A stretch of 64,000 nt of DNA, from assembly GCA_964627195.1 (NCBI GenBank), contig CAZVJU010000001.1, forward strand, positions 9,066-73,065, read 5' to 3'. The notes below the pieces were generated by a model. That model was not told where the DNA came from. It saw nothing but the letters and a program-made list of their open reading frames with translations, and made no database searches. Numbering within the stretch: position 1 is the first letter of the stretch; each line of letters opens with the position of its first letter. Of the stretch, positions 25,558-52,976 are shown one piece after another. Source of the DNA: an uncultured Gammaproteobacteria bacterium. GTDB lineage: Bacteria > Patescibacteriota > Microgenomatia > UBA8517. Both the position numbers and the translations under genes were made by a program.

Positions 25558-25595
25558 CACACCGGGTGTGTCAACCCAGCACACACCCGGTGTGG
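25558..25595 (+). repeat. CACACCSGGTGTG nested-palindrome element, copy B (short form)
   Basis: CACACCGGGTGTGTCAACCCAGCACACACCCGGTGTGG, located between the ABC ATPase stop and the permease start. Confidence 0.8.
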
Positions 25596-29614: not shown

Positions 29615-30124
29615 TCAATTTGACCTTAACTCCGCAGTAGCTTGAAACGTCTCGTTTTTTTGGAATTCTTTTCTTTGGGCAACACTCTCTATTGTTATAG
29701 CAAAACCGATGTTTAAAGACGCAGTTCCGCTTGATAGATTAGTAAAGTTTAAACTAGTAACAGACACTTGATTGCTGGTTATCGGACAGGGAGAAGTTGA
29801 CGGACAAGATCCTCCAGAACCGTAGCCAATTCTTAATCTGCCACCAGATAGATCAATTACAGTCGGATTCCTACTTGAATCAGTCATTTGAAGTGAAATC
29901 GAAGTCGGATTGACCGGTAGATTCAAGTCCTGTGCATTTCTTATCTCATACATAATTCTTTTACCAGCTAAACGGACATTCTGATTCACTTCCTGATGAG
30001 TGTAGGATTTTACCCGGCCGTAAGTAACATCCCACATAAAAAGAATTGCACCGGTCAAAAAGATTGCCAAAATAGCAACATAAAGTATCATTTCAACCAA
30101 AGTAAAGCCTGAACATACAGACAC
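29615..30124 (-). CDS. Type IV pseudopilin
   Basis: SG|FTLVEMILYVAILAIF. I prefer the GTG at 30124, which gives the leader MSVCSG. The track ATG at 30226 would translate through repeat copy C. Confidence 0.7.
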   Translation of the reverse strand: MSVCSGFTLVEMILYVAILAIFLTGAILFMWDVTYGRVKSYTHQEVNQNVRLAGKRIMYEIRNAQDLNLPVNPTSISLQMTDSSRNPTVIDLSGGRLRIGYGSGGSCPSTSPCPITSNQVSVTSLNFTNLSSGTASLNIGFAITIESVAQRKEFQKNETFQATAELRSN

Positions 30125-30182
30125 ACCGGGTGTGTGATTCCTCTTTGTACCATATAAATTTGGATCACACACCCGGTGTGAA
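30120..30182 (-). repeat. CACACCSGGTGTG nested-palindrome element, copy C
   Basis: The reverse complement, TTCACACCGGGTGTGTGATCCAAATTTATAT..GAATCACACACCCGGTGTG, matches copy A arm for arm. Confidence 0.85.
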
Positions 30183-40370: not shown

Positions 40371-41153
40371 TTAATCTTGATTGCGTATCCCTACAACACA
40401 GGCAAATCTGCCTTGGTGATTTAGAGGCAACTCCCTTTCACGAACATGCGAGAAAAATCTGTTATCGTGAACTGTATCAATATAACAATCGATAATATTT
40501 TTCTCTAAAACTCCGGAGTCAATTATTTGTTTTTTGCATAGTCCTACAAAGTCTACCTTATAGTGATTAGCATCAAGCTGATCAATAAATGGCTGCCATT
40601 CAGAGTCATCAACTTGTGAAGGGTTTTCCTTGATAAAAGAATCCTTGCGAGCAGCAGGACCAAGACCAACAATTACATCCTTGGGATTTGTGTTATAGTC
40701 ATTCTCCAACCTTCTAGTGGCTTTGGCGGCTATTTCCAAGTCCACACCCTTCCATCCCACATGAACCAGTCCCACAACTTCTTTTACTGGATCAAAAAAA
40801 ATAACCGGTAAACAATCTGCGATAAGAAGAAATAAATAGAGATTTTTCTTATCTGTAAGTATTGCATCAACTTTAATTGCATAATTGGAATCCAAAATGC
40901 TTCTTCCGGACCATTTCTTATCGGCAATTACAACCTCATCCTTATGAACAACCCACATACAAACAGTTTCGTCAACCGAAACATCAAGTTTTGTTAAAAA
41001 CCTCTTACGATTAGGAACTACCACTGAAAAATCCTGTACTTTTCCAAGAATCGAGTTAGCCATATTTCCATCTGCCTTTGTTGAAAAAGCATGGAAAAGT
41101 TTCGGAAATTTCAGGAGTTCGGGAATTTGATACATTGAATCAAAAAAATACAC
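40371..41153 (-). CDS. pgeF: YfiH/PgeF (DUF152, laccase-domain) protein
   Basis: Conserved blocks LLIADCLPV, LVHVGWKG and a C-terminal FFSH.R. Confidence 0.8.
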   Translation of the reverse strand: MYFFDSMYQIPELLKFPKLFHAFSTKADGNMANSILGKVQDFSVVVPNRKRFLTKLDVSVDETVCMWVVHKDEVVIADKKWSGRSILDSNYAIKVDAILTDKKNLYLFLLIADCLPVIFFDPVKEVVGLVHVGWKGVDLEIAAKATRRLENDYNTNPKDVIVGLGPAARKDSFIKENPSQVDDSEWQPFIDQLDANHYKVDFVGLCKKQIIDSGVLEKNIIDCYIDTVHDNRFFSHVRERELPLNHQGRFACVVGIRNQD

Positions 41154-41556
41154 CTATTAAAAACCCTGCGGGAAGTAGCCAGATAAAAATATTCAAAATG
41201 AAAAGTAAAGTATTAAAACTGTAAAGAGTTGAGTCCAAAAGGAAAAATGTTATCAAAATCCCGTCTGCTAACAATCCTTGTGCAATTGATCTATCATTCT
41301 TTATAGGTGAAAATTTGTATTTATAGTATAGAGTCGGATTTACTATAAAACTTTTACCTCGCAATTGAAGTGGTTCCTGGTTAAACCTGGCATAAGGAAC
41401 CGGGAAACCCGCATAGTATCCACATTCTAAAAGTTTTATATTCCCACAACCAACATTCATAACAATAAATGAAGAAAGAAGAGAAAGAGCTATTCCTATA
41501 AAAAAGAAAGCGGACAAGGTTAAAGTTTTCTTATTAAAACCGAACTTTTTGTTCAT
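41140..41556 (-). CDS. Hypothetical membrane protein
   Basis: 138 aa with an N-terminal TM, a Cys-containing loop and C-terminal TM helices. I recognise no family. Confidence 0.5.
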   Translation of the reverse strand: MNKKFGFNKKTLTLSAFFFIGIALSLLSSFIVMNVGCGNIKLLECGYYAGFPVPYARFNQEPLQLRGKSFIVNPTLYYKYKFSPIKNDRSIAQGLLADGILITFFLLDSTLYSFNTLLFILNIFIWLLPAGFLIGVFF

Positions 41557-41617
41557 ACGTTAATATTGCTTTATTATACATTCATAATGATAAGTCAGGA
41601 AACGGAATGTGCGATTT

Positions 41618-41716
41618 TGCCTAATGTGCGGCGATATATCCGAAGTACCGCCACGGTATGCGTCTGGTTTGGATTATATCAAAAACTTGAGACATTTAGG
41701 ATATACCGCAGTTAGG
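41618..41716 (-). other. attC-like site with canonical core / inverse-core heptamers
   Basis: The minus strand reads GCCTAAC-T-GCGGTATATCC ... GGATATATCGCCGC-AC-ATTAGGC, with an inner hairpin TACCG/CGGTA. A further GTTAGGC lies at 41744-41750. Confidence 0.6.
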
Positions 41717-41798
41717 CGATGTCGCGAACGTAAGTGAGTGACGAGCCTAACAAGGCTTTGGCACCGTGCTGTGCGATGTAAATTTTTTATGTTGTCAG

Positions 41799-42323
41799 TT
41801 AATATAATAAATATTTTCTCGCGAATGAAAGTGCGGCAATCGTCTGACAATCTGCAATTTTACCATCGTCAAACATCTGGTATGCTTTAAAAATTGGAAT
41901 TCCTTTTATTTTTAAACCATGCTCGGTATCTTCCAATTTTTGTTTAGTTTTCTCCAAATTATCTGCCAAAAATACTGTGCATTGTTCTGCGCATAGTCCG
42001 CTCCATGGAGTGTATACTCCAAGTTTTTTCCATGACTTTGCAGTGTAACCAAGCTCTTCCTCAAATACTCTTTTTGCTGCTGCTAATGCGGTATAACCTT
42101 TTTCCTGTCCTCCGCCAGGCAGTTCTAGCGTCCATTGTTTTAATGTATAGCGATACTGGTATGTAAAAATTATTTTAGCCTTTTTGATCGGCACAATAAA
42201 TACTGATCGATCGGTCTCTTTGATATGAATAATGAAGTAATTACCTTCTACATGAGTAGGAGTAATGAATTTTTCATGAGACACATGGAACCATTGATTT
42301 TTATATACAACATTTTCAGACAA
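41799..42323 (-). CDS. NUDIX hydrolase (ADP-ribose pyrophosphatase-like), cassette ORF
   Basis: Nudix box GGGQEKGYTALAAAKRVFEEELGY. It uses a TTG start, and an in-frame TGA lies 3 codons upstream. Confidence 0.8.
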   Translation of the reverse strand: MSENVVYKNQWFHVSHEKFITPTHVEGNYFIIHIKETDRSVFIVPIKKAKIIFTYQYRYTLKQWTLELPGGGQEKGYTALAAAKRVFEEELGYTAKSWKKLGVYTPWSGLCAEQCTVFLADNLEKTKQKLEDTEHGLKIKGIPIFKAYQMFDDGKIADCQTIAALSFARKYLLY

Positions 42324-42523
42324 TTTAGTTCATGGTTTCATTTTAATATTATTCTTTTCCATAAAATAAATTAGAGTTATTCCTTATTACCCCTCCTTAA
42401 TAATTAAAATCAAATTTTCATCTCTAATCAATGCGCAAAAGCTTGAAATCTCCAACAAGATAAAAATTTATTTCGTATAATGTTTCGGTGTATGGGAAGT
42501 TTGCCTTATTTTTCCCATTAGGA

Positions 42524-42856
42524 TTAGTAAATTTGCAAACAGCCCAAGGTTTTGTCTTTTTCAAACGAATGAATGTCTTGACTATTTTTTGTCAAAAGTC
42601 GTTTGATGTTTTGAGTGGAAGTGTTACCTGTTCTGAGCCAAATTACCTTGGGAGGATAACCATAAATAAGGCTTCTTTCGTTGAAATCCGAGTCTTGAGT
42701 TACGAGAGTAAAACCATTGTCGCGAGCGTAGTTCCATACTTTCTCATCAGTGGCTGTTTGTAAATCCAGCAGGTAAACGTGGCTTGAACCTGAAAATAAA
42801 ACCTTAAGCTGCTTAACCAGCTTGCGGGAGATGTTTTGATCTAAGAGTAATTTCAT
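42524..42856 (-). CDS. PIN-like putative toxin (DUF5615 / Mut7-C-like)
   Basis: MKLLLDQNISRKLVKQL...VTQDSDF pattern, paired with an upstream DUF433-like gene. Confidence 0.6.
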   Translation of the reverse strand: MKLLLDQNISRKLVKQLKVLFSGSSHVYLLDLQTATDEKVWNYARDNGFTLVTQDSDFNERSLIYGYPPKVIWLRTGNTSTQNIKRLLTKNSQDIHSFEKDKTLGCLQIY

Positions 42857-43076
42857 GACCAGCCGTAGTTAGGGAATGCTCTCTTTCTGACGCATAGGTT
42901 AAAACTGCCTTAATATCCTCTTTGGTTAATTCGGGAAAGTCGCTTAATATTTTCTTTTTACTCATACCTGAAGAGAGCATTTTCAAAACATCATATACGG
43001 TGATGCGCATATCCCGAATAGTGGGTTGACCACCACGTTTACCTGGTTCGATACTGATAATTCCTTTATAATTCAT
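42813..43076 (-). CDS. DUF433-like putative antitoxin
   Basis: The GKRGGQPTIRDMRITVYDVLKML pattern typical of DUF433. It overlaps the toxin gene by 44 nt. Confidence 0.6.
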   Translation of the reverse strand: MNYKGIISIEPGKRGGQPTIRDMRITVYDVLKMLSSGMSKKKILSDFPELTKEDIKAVLTYASEREHSLTTAGHEITLRSKHLPQAG

Positions 43077-43264
43077 AGTTCTTATAATACTATAAACAAA
43101 AAATTAAGGCAAATTTGGACGGAAGAAAATAGCACAAGCTTAGTTTTATTCGAACCGTGCCATTTTTCTGTAACCCCATGTACCGTGTTATACGCCCCGA
43201 GCGAAACGAAGTGTAGCGAGAGCGCAGCGTGGTCGAGCGATAACGAGAAGAAATGGAGGCAAAA

Positions 43265-43516
43265 TTACAAATCTAGATCACCAATCCAAGTATCCACAAC
43301 CAGCTTTTTTGTTTGTTCCAGATAATCGTGAATACCCGTGAATATTTTCTCTCTACCATCTGGCAGAACAACCCTGATACTATCTTCATGTTTAGTATCG
43401 AATACAGACAGAACAAGCTTGTCACCACTCAATACTAATCTCCTAGTGCCGTCATCTCCTTCGACCACTTCAAGTCCATCAACATGAAATGGTATCTCTT
43501 TTGGTTGTTCTGCCAT
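43265..43516 (-). CDS. Hypothetical protein (83 aa), cassette ORF
   Basis: An ORF with GGAGG 7 nt upstream of its ATG. It is flanked by the 14-nt inverted repeat AATGGAGGCAAAAT / ATTTTGCCTCCATT. Confidence 0.5.
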   Translation of the reverse strand: MAEQPKEIPFHVDGLEVVEGDDGTRRLVLSGDKLVLSVFDTKHEDSIRVVLPDGREKIFTGIHDYLEQTKKLVVDTWIGDLDL

Positions 43517-43535
43517 ATTTTGCCTCCATTATTGT

Positions 43536-43698
43536 ATCTAACGTTTCCGAATATGAGAAGTTTTTGGCCGCTTCCTTACTATATTTTAAGAAAAGAAAAG
43601 GGCAAAAATTTGGGTTGAGAAAAATTTGCATACTTATTAATTTAATTGCGCAAATTTTTTGAACCTCATATTCGGTGTTGTGCGAAATAAGGCTCGGC
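43536..43698 (-). other. attC-like site 2
   Basis: The minus strand reads GCCGAGCCTTATTTCGCACAAC-A-CCGAATATGAG ... CTCATATTCGG-AAAC-G|TTAGAT, with an inner 10-bp hairpin AAAAATTTGC/GCAAATTTTT. Confidence 0.65.
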
Positions 43699-43728
43699 GT
43701 TTTTTCAAATATAGATGGAAAGAATTTT

Positions 43729-44013
43729 TTATTTTTTAATAATATAAGATACTAAGGAATAAACGAGATAAACAACCAAGAATGGAATTACTAATAAAGA
43801 AAAAAATTGAAGAATATAATCACTAAAGTAAAAACAACATTTTGGCAAACCTACGTGCTGTGGCCAATGTTCACATTCTATCTTGGGGCAGACTGCCAGT
43901 TTATACCTAATTTGGGAATATTCCCAGACTCTTAAATAATAGTAAATAACAGTTATTACTGTAGATGCAATAATTTTTTTCTTTGTGGGCTTAAAAAATT
44001 CTTTCCAGTCCAT
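43729..44013 (-). CDS. Hypothetical Cys-rich two-TM protein (94 aa), cassette ORF
   Basis: N-terminal and C-terminal TM helices flank CPKIECEHWPQHVGLPKCC. The gene is flanked by a perfect 22-bp inverted repeat. Confidence 0.5.
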   Translation of the reverse strand: MDWKEFFKPTKKKIIASTVITVIYYYLRVWEYSQIRYKLAVCPKIECEHWPQHVGLPKCCFYFSDYILQFFSLLVIPFLVVYLVYSLVSYIIKK

Positions 44014-44076
44014 ATTATTATCTTGGTTAATTGATTAATATAAAGTTTTCTATTTACTCTAGCCGAGCCTTATTTC

Positions 44077-44195
44077 GCACAACGTTCCAGTATATGCGAT
44101 GTTCCGCTACATCCATATTTTATCAAATTAAAAGTTGTAGTGGAATATGGGAGAGCGAAGTGCAACGAGCGAACCGCATACACTGTGTTAAGAGA
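44077..44195 (-). other. attC-like site 1
   Basis: The minus strand reads TCTCTTAAC-A-CAGTGTATGCGGTTCGC ... GCGGAACATCGCATATACTG-GAAC-G|TTGTGC, an imperfect palindrome with bulges. Confidence 0.65.
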
Positions 44196-44275
44196 CCTGA
44201 AGCAAATCAGTTACATTTTTTAAAACTGATTTGCTGAAAGTGCAACGAGGCAAGCAACTGAAAGGAGCGCAGAGT

Positions 44276-44644
44276 TTATTTTTTGTCAGAAGGTTTAATT
44301 TTTGAAAACAAGTGCTGGATAACTAACAACACTAAATAAATTATTGGTATGTAATAAAGAGCCAAAATAATTTTCGAGTAAGGATATTTTCCATAAATAC
44401 TGCAGCAACAAATCTCTGAAGCTTTGAAAACCTCTCCAGTTTTACCTTTGCTGTCATCTATCTTTGTATCAACTCCATCCTCGCAATATTTTTTACATTC
44501 AGGGTTAGCATCCGTCATGCACTGTATAACTCCCACTTGATCTACTCGAAAATTATGAATTGCAATAATTGAGCTATTCACCCCAACAAAAATTACAAGG
44601 GTTGCTAAAACAATTTTTAAATTAAATAAACTTTTCCAATTCAT
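44276..44644 (-). CDS. Hypothetical Cys-rich two-TM protein (122 aa), first cassette ORF
   Basis: N-terminal TM, a Cys-rich middle (CMTDANPECKKYCEDG...CCCS) and a C-terminal TM. Confidence 0.5.
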   Translation of the reverse strand: MNWKSLFNLKIVLATLVIFVGVNSSIIAIHNFRVDQVGVIQCMTDANPECKKYCEDGVDTKIDDSKGKTGEVFKASEICCCSIYGKYPYSKIILALYYIPIIYLVLLVIQHLFSKIKPSDKK

Positions 44645-44674
44645 TTTGAAACTTTTTCTGACAAAAAATAAATT

Positions 44675-44715
44675 TCTCTTAACTACTGTTTGTACGAATT
44701 GTTGTTCGTATAAAC
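44675..44715. other. attI-like region: an 11-6-11 recombinase-type palindrome plus the first cassette junction
   Basis: GTTTGTACGAA-TTGTTG-TTCGTATAAAC (44688-44715), and on the minus strand G|TTAAGAGA at 44683-44675. Confidence 0.5.
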
Positions 44716-44740
44716 GGTATTATTATGATAAAATAATACC

Positions 44741-45549
44741 ATGTTAATCGAAAAATTATAAGAATACTTGCGAATTGCTGGATACAGTGCAGAAACAATT
44801 AAAACATATACTTTGTGTACCCAAAAAATCTATTCCCGCTTCAAAAAACCGCTTAACCTCATCGCTTCTTCCGAATTCGCTGACTTTTTAGACGAGTTGG
44901 TAAAAAGAGGCAATTCCCCTTATACAATAAACCTATACCATGCTTCTCTCAAACTGGTCATAGAAAAAATTTATGATAAGCCTTTTTATTACAAATTTCC
45001 TTACGCAAAAAGACATAAAAAACTTCCCATTGTACTTTCCAGAAGTGAAATCAACTTGATTTTAAATAAAATTATCAATTCCAAACATAAACTTCTTATA
45101 GCGCTGGCTTATGGAGCCGGATTACGGGTAAGTGAAGCGATAGATCTAAAAGTAAAAGATATCGATCTTCAAGAATTAACCATTCATCTTAAAGATGCAA
45201 AGGGGAAAAAAGACAGGATAACGATCATTCCGGAAAAAATTAGATCTGATCTTCAAAATCTGATTGCGGGAAAGACGGCAAACGGTTACTTTTTGAGAGC
45301 GAACGAGGCGGAAGGCTAACAACAAGAACAGCTCAAAAAGTGTTTACATCTTCGATAAAAAAAGTCGGAATTAAAAAGGATGCAACTTTTCACTCCCTCC
45401 GTCATAGTTTCGCGACACACCTTTTCGAAAATGGAGTCGATATCCGCTATGTGCAAGAACTACTTGGGCATGCTAACATCAGAACAACACAGCTTTATAC
45501 CAAAGTTACAAATCCGAAGCTAAAAAATATAAGAAGTCCACTGCGATGA
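44741..45549 (+). pseudogene. Tyrosine recombinase (Xer/IntI-like) with an in-frame stop and a frameshift
   Basis: - Track ORFs 44768..45319 and 45340..45549 are two halves of one gene.
- After NGYFL the +1 frame continues [17 protein letters not shown]...[11 protein letters not shown]...[16 protein letters not shown], and the shift sits at the T5 run 45290-45294.
- Catalytic residues are present: R (GLRVSE), HxxR, H and Y.
- Upstream in frame, ATG 44741 gives MLIEKL, then TAA at 44759-44761, then EYLRIAGYS. Confidence 0.8.
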
Positions 45550-45668
45550 ACAACTCTGTGCCAGGAGCACAGGGTATCTGAAGGAATTCTGCCTTTAGCA
45601 GAAATGTTCTTTTTAGCTATTCTATTAGAGAACCCTGCTGCAAAACAGCAGGGTATTTAAGGATAAAA

Positions 45669-46370
45669 ATGAAAATCGATATCTTAACTCTTTTCCCGAA
45701 CATGTTTCACGGGCCGTTTGATGAAAGTATTGTTAAGCGGGCTCGAGATAAAGGTCTGGTGGATATTACTGTCCATAATTTACGGGATTGGGCAGGGGAC
45801 AAACATAAAACTGTGGATGACAGACCATATGGAGGTGGAGTTGGGATGATTTTAAAAGTTGAAGTATTAGATAAGGCCGTAAGTCAATTAGAAATGAAAG
45901 ATTCGGACACAAAAGTTATACTCTTGGACGCAGGCGGTAAAAAATTTACTCAGAAAGATGCAAAAAGATTATCAAAAAGCGAACACCTGATTCTGATTGC
46001 AGGCCATTATGAAGGAGTAGATTATCGAGTCCATAAAAAAATTGCTGATGAAGTAATGTCAATCGGAGATTACGTTCTAACGGGTGGTGAACTTCCTGCA
46101 ATGGTTATCACTGATTCAATCGTTCGCCTTATTCCCAAAGTCCTAGAAAAATCCGAAGCAACAGTATTTGAAAGCTTTTCTCCAACATCCAACATCCAAC
46201 ATCCAACATCTATCCTTGAATATCCTCAATATACCCGACCTGAAGTTTATAAAGGCTGGAAAGTTCCTAAAATTCTCCTCTCCGGAAATCACAAAGAAAT
46301 TGAAAAATGGAGAAAGGAGCAATCTATTGAGAGGACGAAGAAAGCGCGCCCAGATCTTCCTGGTAGATAG
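45669..46370 (+). CDS. trmD: tRNA (guanine37-N1)-methyltransferase
   Basis: Motifs MKIDILTLFPNMF, DDRPYGGGVGM, IAGHYEGVD, GDYVLTGGELPA, EYPQYTRP and LLSGNH. Confidence 0.95.
   Translation: MKIDILTLFPNMFHGPFDESIVKRARDKGLVDITVHNLRDWAGDKHKTVDDRPYGGGVGMILKVEVLDKAVSQLEMKDSDTKVILLDAGGKKFTQKDAKRLSKSEHLILIAGHYEGVDYRVHKKIADEVMSIGDYVLTGGELPAMVITDSIVRLIPKVLEKSEATVFESFSPTSNIQHPTSILEYPQYTRPEVYKGWKVPKILLSGNHKEIEKWRKEQSIERTKKARPDLPGR
46182..46209 (+). repeat. Heptanucleotide microsatellite (CCAACAT)x4 inside trmD
   Basis: Read directly from the sequence. It encodes PTSNIQHPT, inserted just before the conserved LEYPQYTRP block. Confidence 0.9.
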
Positions 46371-52067: not shown

Positions 52068-52976
52068 CTAATTTTTAGTCGTTCTTATAGATTCCCACAA
52101 AGGATTAAAATTTCTTGCATACCTCCGACTACTAAAAAGAGTATAAATACTAATAAATAAGAGGTAAACACCCGCAAAGGGATTTTTGATAAATTCAATG
52201 AACTTAAACAACCATATTTTAGAAACTGGTTTATATTCTTCAGTAACAATGTCTCCGAATATATTCTTTAAAATAAAACGGTTGGAGTTGTTTCTCGTCA
52301 TCCACTTTAAGTATTCCTTAGTATTTGAAGGATTTCTATAGTAGACTTTAGCTTTTCTTACATGTTTGTAATTGTACTCGGAAGTGATAGCCGAAAAATA
52401 AAGGTAAGAATCCACATTACCCATCTGCTTGTCCTGAGGCAATTGTAAACTTTTAATAAAATTTCTTGTGAATGCCATTACCTTGCCATCGCAGGTAAAT
52501 TTTTTATTTTTATTTTTAAGCGAGTTACTCATTTTATAAAAAGCGTTAAAACTGGAATTAGCTGCTGATTGCACAAAATTGACTGGGGGTAACGGATTCG
52601 GATTACCCGTCACAAACCCTACTTTAGAGTTATTAAAGGGTTCTACTAACTTACTTAGCAACTCATCGTCGTTAATAAAGATATCATCGTTTAAAATTAC
52701 TAGTACGTCTGAATCATTATTCTGGAAAAAAAATCTAACCACGCCGGCGAAACCTTTTCTATTCTTACCCTTAACAACATGGATGGTTGAGTAAACCTTA
52801 GCGTAAGTGTCTGCGATATAATTCGTTCTATCGGAAGAACAATCAGAATAAATTTTTATCTCCTTTAATACATAATTACTCTCTTTCTGAATCACAAGAG
52901 ATTCTAAAAGTAAAGATAGGTTTTTCTCGGCGTTGTAAACCGCTATTGCTACTGTTGTATTTATTTTCTTTTTCAT
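52068..52976 (-). CDS. GT2 glycosyltransferase
   Basis: VAIAVYNAEKNL, with acidic motifs (SDCSSD, LNDDIF). Confidence 0.75.
   Translation of the reverse strand: MKKKINTTVAIAVYNAEKNLSLLLESLVIQKESNYVLKEIKIYSDCSSDRTNYIADTYAKVYSTIHVVKGKNRKGFAGVVRFFFQNNDSDVLVILNDDIFINDDELLSKLVEPFNNSKVGFVTGNPNPLPPVNFVQSAANSSFNAFYKMSNSLKNKNKKFTCDGKVMAFTRNFIKSLQLPQDKQMGNVDSYLYFSAITSEYNYKHVRKAKVYYRNPSNTKEYLKWMTRNNSNRFILKNIFGDIVTEEYKPVSKIWLFKFIEFIKNPFAGVYLLFISIYTLFSSRRYARNFNPLWESIRTTKN

Follow-up and report, generated by a model that had tools for sequence, protein, structure and literature searches.

A probable chromosomal gene-cassette platform of Woesebacteria-like bacteria, with a XerA-like recombinase and a dif-like insertion site, and a decayed copy of it

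The attC sites of integron cassettes are canonically 57-141 bp long, are bounded by RYYYAAC and GTTRRRY, and have a roughly symmetric unpaired central spacer and extrahelical bases near L''. Cognate unit ends are the classical signature of such cassettes. In attC the extrahelical bases near L'' lie on the arm opposite the cleaved AAC (PMC5027507), and the defining feature of integron integrases (IntI) is an insertion that they need for attC recombination (PMC9668308). The dif sites of Xer systems follow an 11-6-11 rule of geometry; in archaea, XerA and dif resolve dimers at a single terminus site that does not adjoin the recombinase gene (PMC2958812). In Acinetobacter plasmids, a pair of C and D modules between direct sites is an excisable unit, toxin-antitoxin and ORF-less modules (without an open reading frame) are common, and diverse content is carried on a conserved backbone (PMC13141974). 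For CTX phage, the integrating form is reported to be a hairpin folded from two inverted halves that resemble dif (PMC3442271). The locus considered here lies in a stretch of 64,000 nucleotides (nt) of contig CAZVJU010000001.1 (assembly GCA_964627195.1, positions 9,066 to 73,065), referred to below as the window, in which a tyrosine recombinase gene diverges from an array of small genes separated by imperfect palindromes. On balance, it is probably a decayed member of a chromosomal gene-cassette platform, with a XerA-like recombinase and a dif-like insertion site (attI), that recurs in Woesebacteria-like bacteria of the Candidate Phyla Radiation (CPR).

The array and the recombinase gene sit between trmD (45669-46370, plus strand) and a gene for a membrane protein of 138 amino acids (aa; 41140-41556, minus strand). 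An earlier note on the window had described a recombinase gene divergent from six small minus-strand ORFs; the six ORFs are present, but the gene is not intact. The DUF433/PIN pair and the NUDIX gene that it named among otherwise unrelated ORFs are borne out by Pfam (DUF433, DUF5615/PIN_10, NUDIX), the other three ORFs having no family. The parts of the locus are as follows:

44741..45549, plus strand: tyrosine recombinase pseudogene of the XerA-like 'Cand' type, with an in-frame TAA and a -1 frameshift
44672..44715, minus strand: attI-like region, a symmetric palindrome overlapping a dif-like site
44688-44715, minus strand: symmetric 11-6-11 palindrome GTTTATACGAA-CAACAA-TTCGTACAAAC in the attI-like region
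44672-44699, minus strand: dif-like 11-6-11 site ATTCGTACAAA-CAGTAG-TTAAGAGAAAT, overlapping the symmetric palindrome
44169-44197, 43662-43688, 43172-43198 and 41699-41722, minus strand: R''-L'' half-sites (T2), consensus ..TC-NNNN-AAC-A-CNGTATATGNG-GTT..
44072-44107, 43531-43562, 42470-42501 and 41614-41647, minus strand: L'-R' half-sites (T1), consensus ..AAC-TT-CNCATATACNG-RAAC-RTT-NNNN-GAAAT
44083..44682, minus strand: cassette 1, orf122 then hairpin 1 (R''-L'' 44169-44197 to L'-R' 44072-44107)
44276-44644, minus strand: orf122, a 122-aa ORF, Cys-rich, membrane; no Pfam family
43542..44082, minus strand: cassette 2, orf94 then hairpin 2 (R''-L'' 43662-43688 to L'-R' 43531-43562)
43729-44013, minus strand: orf94, a 94-aa ORF; no Pfam family
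42481..43541, minus strand: cassette 3, orf83 and a split hairpin (R''-L'' 43172-43198, L'-R' 42470-42501)
43265-43516, minus strand: orf83, an 83-aa orphan ORF; no Pfam family
42813-43076, minus strand: DUF433 gene (Pfam)
42524-42856, minus strand: DUF5615/PIN_10 gene (Pfam), with DUF433 a toxin-antitoxin pair
41751..42480, minus strand: NUDIX unit, degenerate, with a decayed L'-like stretch before GTTAGGC (41745-41751)
41799-42323, minus strand: NUDIX gene (Pfam)
41614..41750, minus strand: distal array end, an ORF-less mini unit and hairpin 5
41711-41751, minus strand: the ORF-less mini unit GTT-AGGC...GCCT-AAC of the distal array end
41699-41722 (R''-L'') to 41614-41647 (L'-R'), minus strand: hairpin 5, ending ATT-AGGC-AAAAT; the weakest sites (E = 0.017 and 0.16)

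Relative loci, designated here by L numbers, were obtained via TrmD, via the recombinase and via exact protein look-ups. Hidden Markov models (HMMs) of T1 and T2, built from these other genomes only and with no window sequence, recover eight half-sites on the minus strand of the window (41614-44197), four R''-L'' and four L'-R', with E = 1e-9, 2e-7, 1e-5 and 0.017 for T1 and E = 4e-6, 1e-3, 2e-3 and 0.16 for T2. No further T1 or T2 match below E = 0.19 was found by the HMM scan anywhere in the 64 kb. The palindromes bounded by AAC and GTT that had been read by eye on the minus strand (sites 1, 2 and 5) lie where they had been placed. In these three pairs the halves are 90-150 nt apart, and their DNA folds, proposed earlier as a check, beat shuffled sequences with z = -2.1 to -4.3 (hairpin 2, z = -3.2 and -4.3). 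The stretch 42324-43264, in which the earlier note could not place the cassette boundaries because the halves of pair 3/4 are 712 nt apart and enclose the DUF433-PIN toxin-antitoxin pair, is resolved by pairing R''-L'' 43172-43198 with L'-R' 42470-42501: R'' GTAT-AAC pairs with ATT-ATAC, and the L stems agree at 9 of 11 positions. The NUDIX unit is left without a cognate end; no cognate R'' and no T2 match were found in 42324-42470, and the tetramers ATAC/GCCT agree at two of four positions. At the distal end, ATTAGGCAAAA of the window corresponds to ATTAGCCAAAG at the end of the L008 array, beside an orthologous 138-aa gene.

Directly upstream of the recombinase gene, nine lineages including that of the window share the attI consensus GTTTATNCGNN-N6-NNCGYAYAAAC-NNTAG|TT, which is constant up to ..TAG and variable from TT on. 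In the window the sequence beyond TT is complementary to the first cassette's own R''. L110 has an equal layout with variant arms, and in L111 only the end of the site is seen, its start apparently overlapping the called gene. The dif-like site of L088 is TTTCGCATAAA-CACTAG-TTATGTGATAT; that of Escherichia coli is GGTGCGCATAA-TGTATA-TTATGTTAAAT. A 'terminator' called at 44684-44719 is the attI palindrome.

Within one gene unit, the tetramer that follows G|TT is the perfect complement of the tetramer that precedes AAC in 10 of 21 units (1.76 expected, P < 1e-5), against 3 of 21 for tetramers facing each other across a single hairpin (1.42 expected, P = 0.16). The window contributes AAGA/TCTT and GTGC/GCAC, the start of cassette 1, TT-AAGA-GA, complementing its own end, TC-TCTT-AAC. 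Reading by eye added two perfect cognate pairs that join attI to the first unit, in L110 and L111. Cognate ends and the boundary between constant and variable sequence in attI therefore place the exchange point at G|TT, and the crossover at the attI of the window would fall at 44683|44682.

Complementarity between cognate leaders and trailers extends beyond the core, with a local score of 13.6 versus 7.8 +/- 1.4 for non-cognate partners and 19 of 21 units above the 95th percentile in ten arrays, which accounts for six of the eight long-range inverted repeats (>=14 nt) of the window. These six lie in 43250-44672 and bracket small genes. Thus orf122 is bracketed by a 17-nt perfect inverted repeat (44275-44291 with 44656-44672), and cassette 2 has a 22-nt perfect inverted repeat (43677-43698 with 44062-44083) starting exactly at GTTGTGC/GCACAAC, with a nested 16-nt repeat (43716-43731 with 43992-44007). 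The gene-bracketing repeats pair the 5' leader, in some cases with its ribosome-binding site and start codon, with the sequence that immediately follows the stop codon, as they also do in L098, L099 and L110. An invertible segment or shufflon was rejected as an explanation, since the inverted-repeat pair of each ORF is unique and no inverted unit was seen. Likewise, a reading of the small membrane ORFs as type I toxins with fold-back messages does not agree with the positions of the repeats, which are inconsistent relative to the ribosome-binding site, or with orf83, which is not hydrophobic.

The hairpin stems are conserved as pairs. Partner L'' and L' stems match at 10.3 of 14 positions versus 7.9 for shuffled partners (P < 5e-5). 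In a gap-free alignment of 12 hairpins, which leaves out the L111 row, 7 of 14 L-stem pairs have changed on both sides, 90% of cells are paired (23-36% in slid controls), and the covariation score of 0.26 compares with 0.11 +/- 0.02 for shuffles, none of 500 reaching it. The changes are Watson-Crick with almost no G-T pairs, which fits a constraint at the level of DNA. AAC and GTT are invariant or nearly so across sites, and all 21 hairpins have extra bases on the L'-R' arm at two constant places, in 19 of them as 3 (AAC) plus 2 (TT/AT); the first bulge is shorter in L111 and in window site 5. Judged by this pattern of substitution, the hairpin is under selection.

The palindromes might instead be passive or regulatory sequences in a hotspot of gene gain and loss, such as repetitive extragenic palindromes (REP, REPIN), miniature inverted-repeat transposable elements (MITEs), terminators, promoters or 5'-3' panhandles of messenger RNA, with the recombinase incidental. 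By eye, -10-like TAAAAT boxes are seen in each of the loops, and the pairing of leaders with trailers beyond the core could act at the RNA level; within-species variation is also lacking. However, promoter-like matches show no excess (14 versus 13.5 in shuffled sequence), so that promoters are not claimed here, and a scan of 41000-45800 against Rfam gave no family, only a chance microRNA match at E = 0.89. REP, REPIN and MITE sequences are dispersed, whereas the platform sites are confined to the arrays: the rest of the 64 kb has no copy, and about 1.3 Mb of other loci has none either, T1 and T2 giving zero matches there at E < 1. The fixed orientation of the sites relative to the recombinase, the attI boundary exactly at G|TT, the tetramer complementarity anchored on invariant GTT and AAC, and the purely Watson-Crick stem covariation also speak against an explanation of this kind, which is very improbable. 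Two loose regular-expression matches in the window, at 52248 and 58227, lie inside ORFs without a partner and were set aside as chance.

The same arrangement recurs with different genes. Intact recombinase orthologues (62-78% mutual identity) occur in at least ten further Woesebacteria-like lineages, nine of which also show the dif-like site, a one-directional array with both site types and different genes between constant flanks, and a recombinase gene diverging from a co-oriented array with attI adjacent was found in the window and ten other loci. The arrays lie upstream of attI, always on the strand opposite the recombinase, their co-oriented genes separated by T2/T1 sites; all T1 and T2 matches at E < 0.05 in the 1.67 Mb examined are upstream of these recombinases on the opposite strand. 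A scan of viral contigs with the L'-R' consensus gave no matches. The genomic context is mostly trmD and varies by lineage (recA in L098). The contents of the relative arrays are:

L008: orf182, then DUF433-PIN
L098: at least 13 genes, including peptidase S51, dCMP deaminase, HicBA, glyoxalase, DUF433-PIN, DUF7668 and PNPOx
L099, L100, L101, L104 and L111: other small genes
L110: a 4.3-kb first unit with an OLD-TOPRIM/UvrD (Gabija-like) pair

The first unit of L110 (3576-7940 of ERZ27251120 k141_42486) encodes OLD-TOPRIM/AAA_15, a UvrD-like helicase and a 414-aa protein, and has the cognate ends GTT-AAAC/GTTT-AAC. In L098 (1871-2807, 3900-5647), a 291-aa gene lies between two direct R''-L'' sites, and L''..L' loops enclose HicB-HicA and dCMP deaminase, HicA having been read from intergenic sequence in which no gene had been called. 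NUDIX genes recur beside the recombinases, on either side (window 41799-42323, L099 2743-3201, L104 6482-6940, L107 8823-9754, L110 837-1358), and are not mutually homologous by tblastn at 1e-4. For orf83, a search of a large protein collection returned orf83 itself as the sole match.

Where they are visible, the outer flanks are conserved. One border is formed by trmD-sortase; the opposite border consists of the 138-aa gene, Cu-oxidase_4, YknX and an ABC transporter:

41140..41556, minus strand: conserved flank, the 138-aa membrane protein, then Cu-oxidase_4 (40371-41153); outer boundary of the variable region

The 138-aa gene has an orthologue at the end of the L008 array (65% identity). In L104 the Cu-oxidase_4 orthologue (57% identity) is preceded by a 135-aa DUF7670 gene, and L101 has Cu-oxidase_4 fragments. 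Conserved flanks with differing content therefore delimit a variable region between fixed borders.

One unit can be followed between genomes. The DUF433-PIN proteins of the window (42524-43076), L008 (7801-8350) and L098 (1187-1736) are 81-86% identical, compared with about 60% for TrmD and 62-78% for the recombinases, which suggests horizontal exchange or strong constraint. Homology of the DNA begins at TAAC-A-L'' and ends at L'-AWAC-RTT, and the unit stands behind three unrelated upstream genes. This unit supports exchange at both junction types.

In the platform, the recombinase gene points away from attI, beyond which gene units accumulate, all in one orientation. Each unit starts TT-NNNN-GA.. 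and ends ..TC-NNNN-AAC-A-L''-loop-L'-RAAC-G. In the mechanism proposed, the enzyme would presumably excise and insert units at G|TT (5'-AA|C-3' on the other strand). General knowledge of tyrosine recombinases predicts a cut at this point by the monomer that occupies the right arm of a dif-like site. Like the attC of integrons and the attP of CTX phage, the imperfect palindrome would be used in hairpin form, folded or extruded. Because the central regions of attI (6-7 nt) and L'-R' (8-9 nt) are not homologous, the likely route is an exchange of one strand pair completed by replication, as happens in integrons and CTX phage.

Several observations weigh against a cassette platform that works in this way. 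No circular junction, empty site or reordering, and no recombination product, was seen among the loci compared. The recombinase is without the insertion that integron integrases need on attC, and the bulged arm of the sites is not the one that carries extrahelical bases in attC. As a duplex, L'-R' repeats the attI arms in full around a central region longer by 2 nt, while R''-L'' lacks 5 nt and would be a poor duplex site; since duplex L'-R' is already a complete attI-like site, the hairpin may not be needed. Genes of 400-700 nt in some loops make single-strand folding less plausible there, and 9 of 21 units have an imperfect tetramer match. In the window species, whose recombinase is dead, at least six assemblies have the same array, with 99.7-99.9% identity over its full length between L112, L113 and the window; the array of the L008 species, in which the recombinase is intact, is likewise unchanged across 24 contigs. 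Turnover is therefore slow or absent at the species level in these two species, and the activity of the platform is rare, conditional or ancient, because variation appears only between more distant relatives at the genus level. The comparison of sibling genomes that the earlier note had proposed thus finds differing content between genera, but none within the two species. Finally, cognate ends are predicted equally by a model of modules with double-stranded sites.

That model supposes that both junctions are ordinary double-stranded Xer sites of alternating orientation, that modules are bounded by like arms and that hairpins play no part. R-modules would carry genes and L-modules a promoter loop or genes. 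As has been suggested for the pdif modules of Acinetobacter, shuffling would occur by inversion, by excision of pairs or through cointegrates that form and are resolved. As in that system, a Xer-type enzyme would act on dif-like arms, the orientation of the sites alternates, and the two ends of each segment carry arms that match, so that the layout mirrors the Acinetobacter C and D modules. The genes inside hairpin loops bring it as close to dif modules as to integrons. The toxin-antitoxin L-module behind three different genes, with homology ending at both junctions, the L098 291-aa gene between direct R''-L'' sites, and the near-identity of L'-R' central regions within one array all have a place in this model; toxin-antitoxin and ORF-less modules are typical of dif modules (PMC13141974). 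However, the two junctions are not equivalent. In 21 of 21 hairpins R''-L'' is short of 3 nt in its central region and 2 nt in its L arm, which would leave about 5 nt of central region and a broken arm. Only attI is 11-6-11, whereas pdif sites are 28 bp (XerC-6-XerD) and are the same site in both orientations. Gene orientation relative to the recombinase is constant in every array and no inverted modules were seen, while the arms covary as hairpin stems. In place of plasmid sites served by host XerC and XerD, there is one recombinase, with its own gene and attI on the chromosome. This alternative is therefore considered unlikely, and the cassette platform is preferred.

The recombinase gene of the window is broken. 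The frame from ATG 44741 is stopped by TAA 44759-44761, which replaces Gln7, and the ORF resumes at 44768-45319; the catalytic C-terminus (HxxR, Tyr) is at 45340-45549 in another frame, one T having been lost from the run 45290-45294. The pieces are collinear with the intact 269-aa orthologue of L008 (67% identity). Both lesions are common to six independent assemblies (L001-L004, L112, L113), so they are not sequencing errors. In the window species the recombinase is inactivated, the array is frozen and the platform is a fossil. The earlier suggestion of a small cassette platform run by a plain Xer enzyme thus gains from relatives that share recombinase, attI and hairpins with differing genes, but its enzyme is dead and its array frozen here. 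The assemblies L001-L004 break in or beside the array or recombinase (window 45017, 44642, 45276, 43167), which could reflect low coverage or assembly trouble at palindromes.

The domains are Phage_int_SAM_4 and Phage_integrase (Pfam). The repaired window copy scores 209.5 bits with the XerA model NF040815 (cut-off 220), about 158 bits with XerC and XerD models, and 191.5 bits, in two stretches, with the integron integrase model TIGR02249 (cut-off 265). Five intact orthologues score 211.7, 213.8, 223.0, 225.6 and 227.3 bits with NF040815, three of the five passing its cut-off, 186-216 bits with TIGR02249 and 165-174 bits with XerC and XerD models, and the family scores 120-150 bits with NF011946 (cut-off 435). 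The family thus scores about as high with IntI models as with XerA, above XerC and XerD, and remains under the IntI cut-offs. Alignment to VchIntIA (2a3v) covers residues 6-176 and 195-268 and skips IntI residues 183-243, the IntI-specific insertion. The enzyme is therefore a simple XerA-like one, and the absence of the insertion had been read correctly from the window alone. It matches 'Cand', a subgroup of Xer-related recombinases (PMC8138268).

Such an enzyme could also be a housekeeping Xer acting at the chromosomal dif, as in xerS-difSL, with the units being small integrative elements exploiting Xer (IMEX) piled at dif. The site is dif-like in its 11-6-11 geometry and in sequence (L088 compared with E. 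coli dif), the family is a large, conserved one (over 5000 relatives at E < 1e-40), and its 'Cand' class is Xer-related. The best sequence match (NF040815), the 11-6-11 target and the simple two-domain recombinase of about 269 aa are all shared with XerA. The CTX precedent is also close: two inverted dif-like halves about 90-150 nt apart fold as a hairpin that resembles a dif-like site whose central region is partly unpaired, a single strand exchange with replication suffices, and elements stand in tandem beside the site. However, the units of the platform are single small genes without phage or replication functions, the site family is array-specific, and the site changes in its right arm according to the first cassette. 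Unlike archaeal dif, the site adjoins the recombinase gene, stands at the head of a variable array of genes and apparently lies away from the terminus. Neither GC skew nor gene strand switches at the array or across the 64 kb, 56 of about 63 genes lying on one strand on both sides of the array. The context differs among lineages (trmD mostly, recA in L098), and a fixed pseudogene, odd for an essential function, indicates that the gene is dispensable in the window species. A housekeeping role is quite unlikely.

As a gene-cassette platform the locus resembles an integron: the recombinase gene diverges from a one-directional array with the insertion site beside it, and the cassettes are short, with mostly orphan or accessory genes including toxin-antitoxin pairs. 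Each cassette has an imperfect palindrome in which only AAC...GTT is invariant, with asymmetric bulges and a variable loop, and its first bases complement its own inverse core, implying crossover at G|TT. The recombinase comes near IntI in model scores, and a SAM_4 N-domain and a ..RSPL C-terminus are common to both. In contrast, the enzyme is without the IntI-specific insertion, the bulges are on the L'-R' arm and not near L'', the internal loop is 1 against 4 nt, and the R stems are 9-25 bp with further leader/trailer pairing beyond. Genes lie inside some loops (DUF433-PIN in three genomes, HicBA and dCMP deaminase in L098), some of which are 500-700 nt. The attI is dif-like with an extra symmetric palindrome, the host is a CPR bacterium, the arrays are static within species, and the cassettes may have their own promoters. 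Of the window cores GCCTAAC fits RYYYAAC, GCACAAC and GTATAAC do not, and two sites start ATT. The likening of the sites to attC in the earlier note thus holds for AAC/GTT and for the cognate ends across the gene, but not for the bulge arm, the 1-against-4 loop or the long R stems. The platform is not a canonical integron and falls outside the present definition of the integron family. The literature library searched, which is incomplete, yielded no account of such arrays or of CPR integrons, and the evidence points to an apparently undescribed integron-like gene-capture system.

The spacers between the minus-strand ORFs, earlier described as 190-260 bp and GC-richer, are indeed 188-262 nt long, the median gap between genes of the 64-kb window being about 36 nt, but GC is raised only in spacers 1, 3 and 5 (0.38-0.42; spacer 2, 0.32; spacer 4, 0.27). 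The enrichment arises because a conserved GC-rich motif near CTCGTTGCACTTCGCTC is present. This motif recurs before R'' and just after L'' (window 44158-44169, 44238-44249, 43209-43220), is also found at about 8440 of L008 and in L098-L101 and L110, and may be an accessory binding site. Two palindrome copies built on CACACCGGGTGTG at 25558-25594 and 30122-30180 of the window are unrelated to the array sites.

The organism is placed among Woesebacteria-like CPR bacteria by TrmD, whose closest relatives are 60-69% identical. Several records of metagenome-assembled genomes titled 'uncultured Gammaproteobacteria' (L006-L008, L011 and others) have Woesebacteria-like genes and synteny, and their titles look like mislabels.

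More broadly, the platform may represent a widespread, undescribed class of gene capture in CPR bacteria (Woesebacteria/Microgenomates), with a plain XerA-like enzyme, a dif-like attI, palindromic sites and promoter-carrying units that include toxin-antitoxin and defence genes, and it might then have reinvented the integron principle independently or be left over from the passage from Xer to IntI. This wider view is tentative, its chances being put at slightly below even. On the current view, integrons go back to Xer-like recombinases to which an added insertion gave the ability to recombine folded single strands. If the platform is real, a cassette system without the IntI insertion would make the question of integron origin testable with real sequences, and its intermediate features, sites that are dif-like as duplexes and yet are kept as bulged hairpins, would bear on the same question. 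It would also connect integrons with the dif modules of Acinetobacter, whose mode of movement is still debated, and would constitute a class of elements invisible to integron-finding software, which requires an IntI domain and canonical attC. CPR bacteria have tiny genomes and few recognised mobile elements; for them, the platform would be a dedicated route for gaining accessory, toxin-antitoxin and defence genes.

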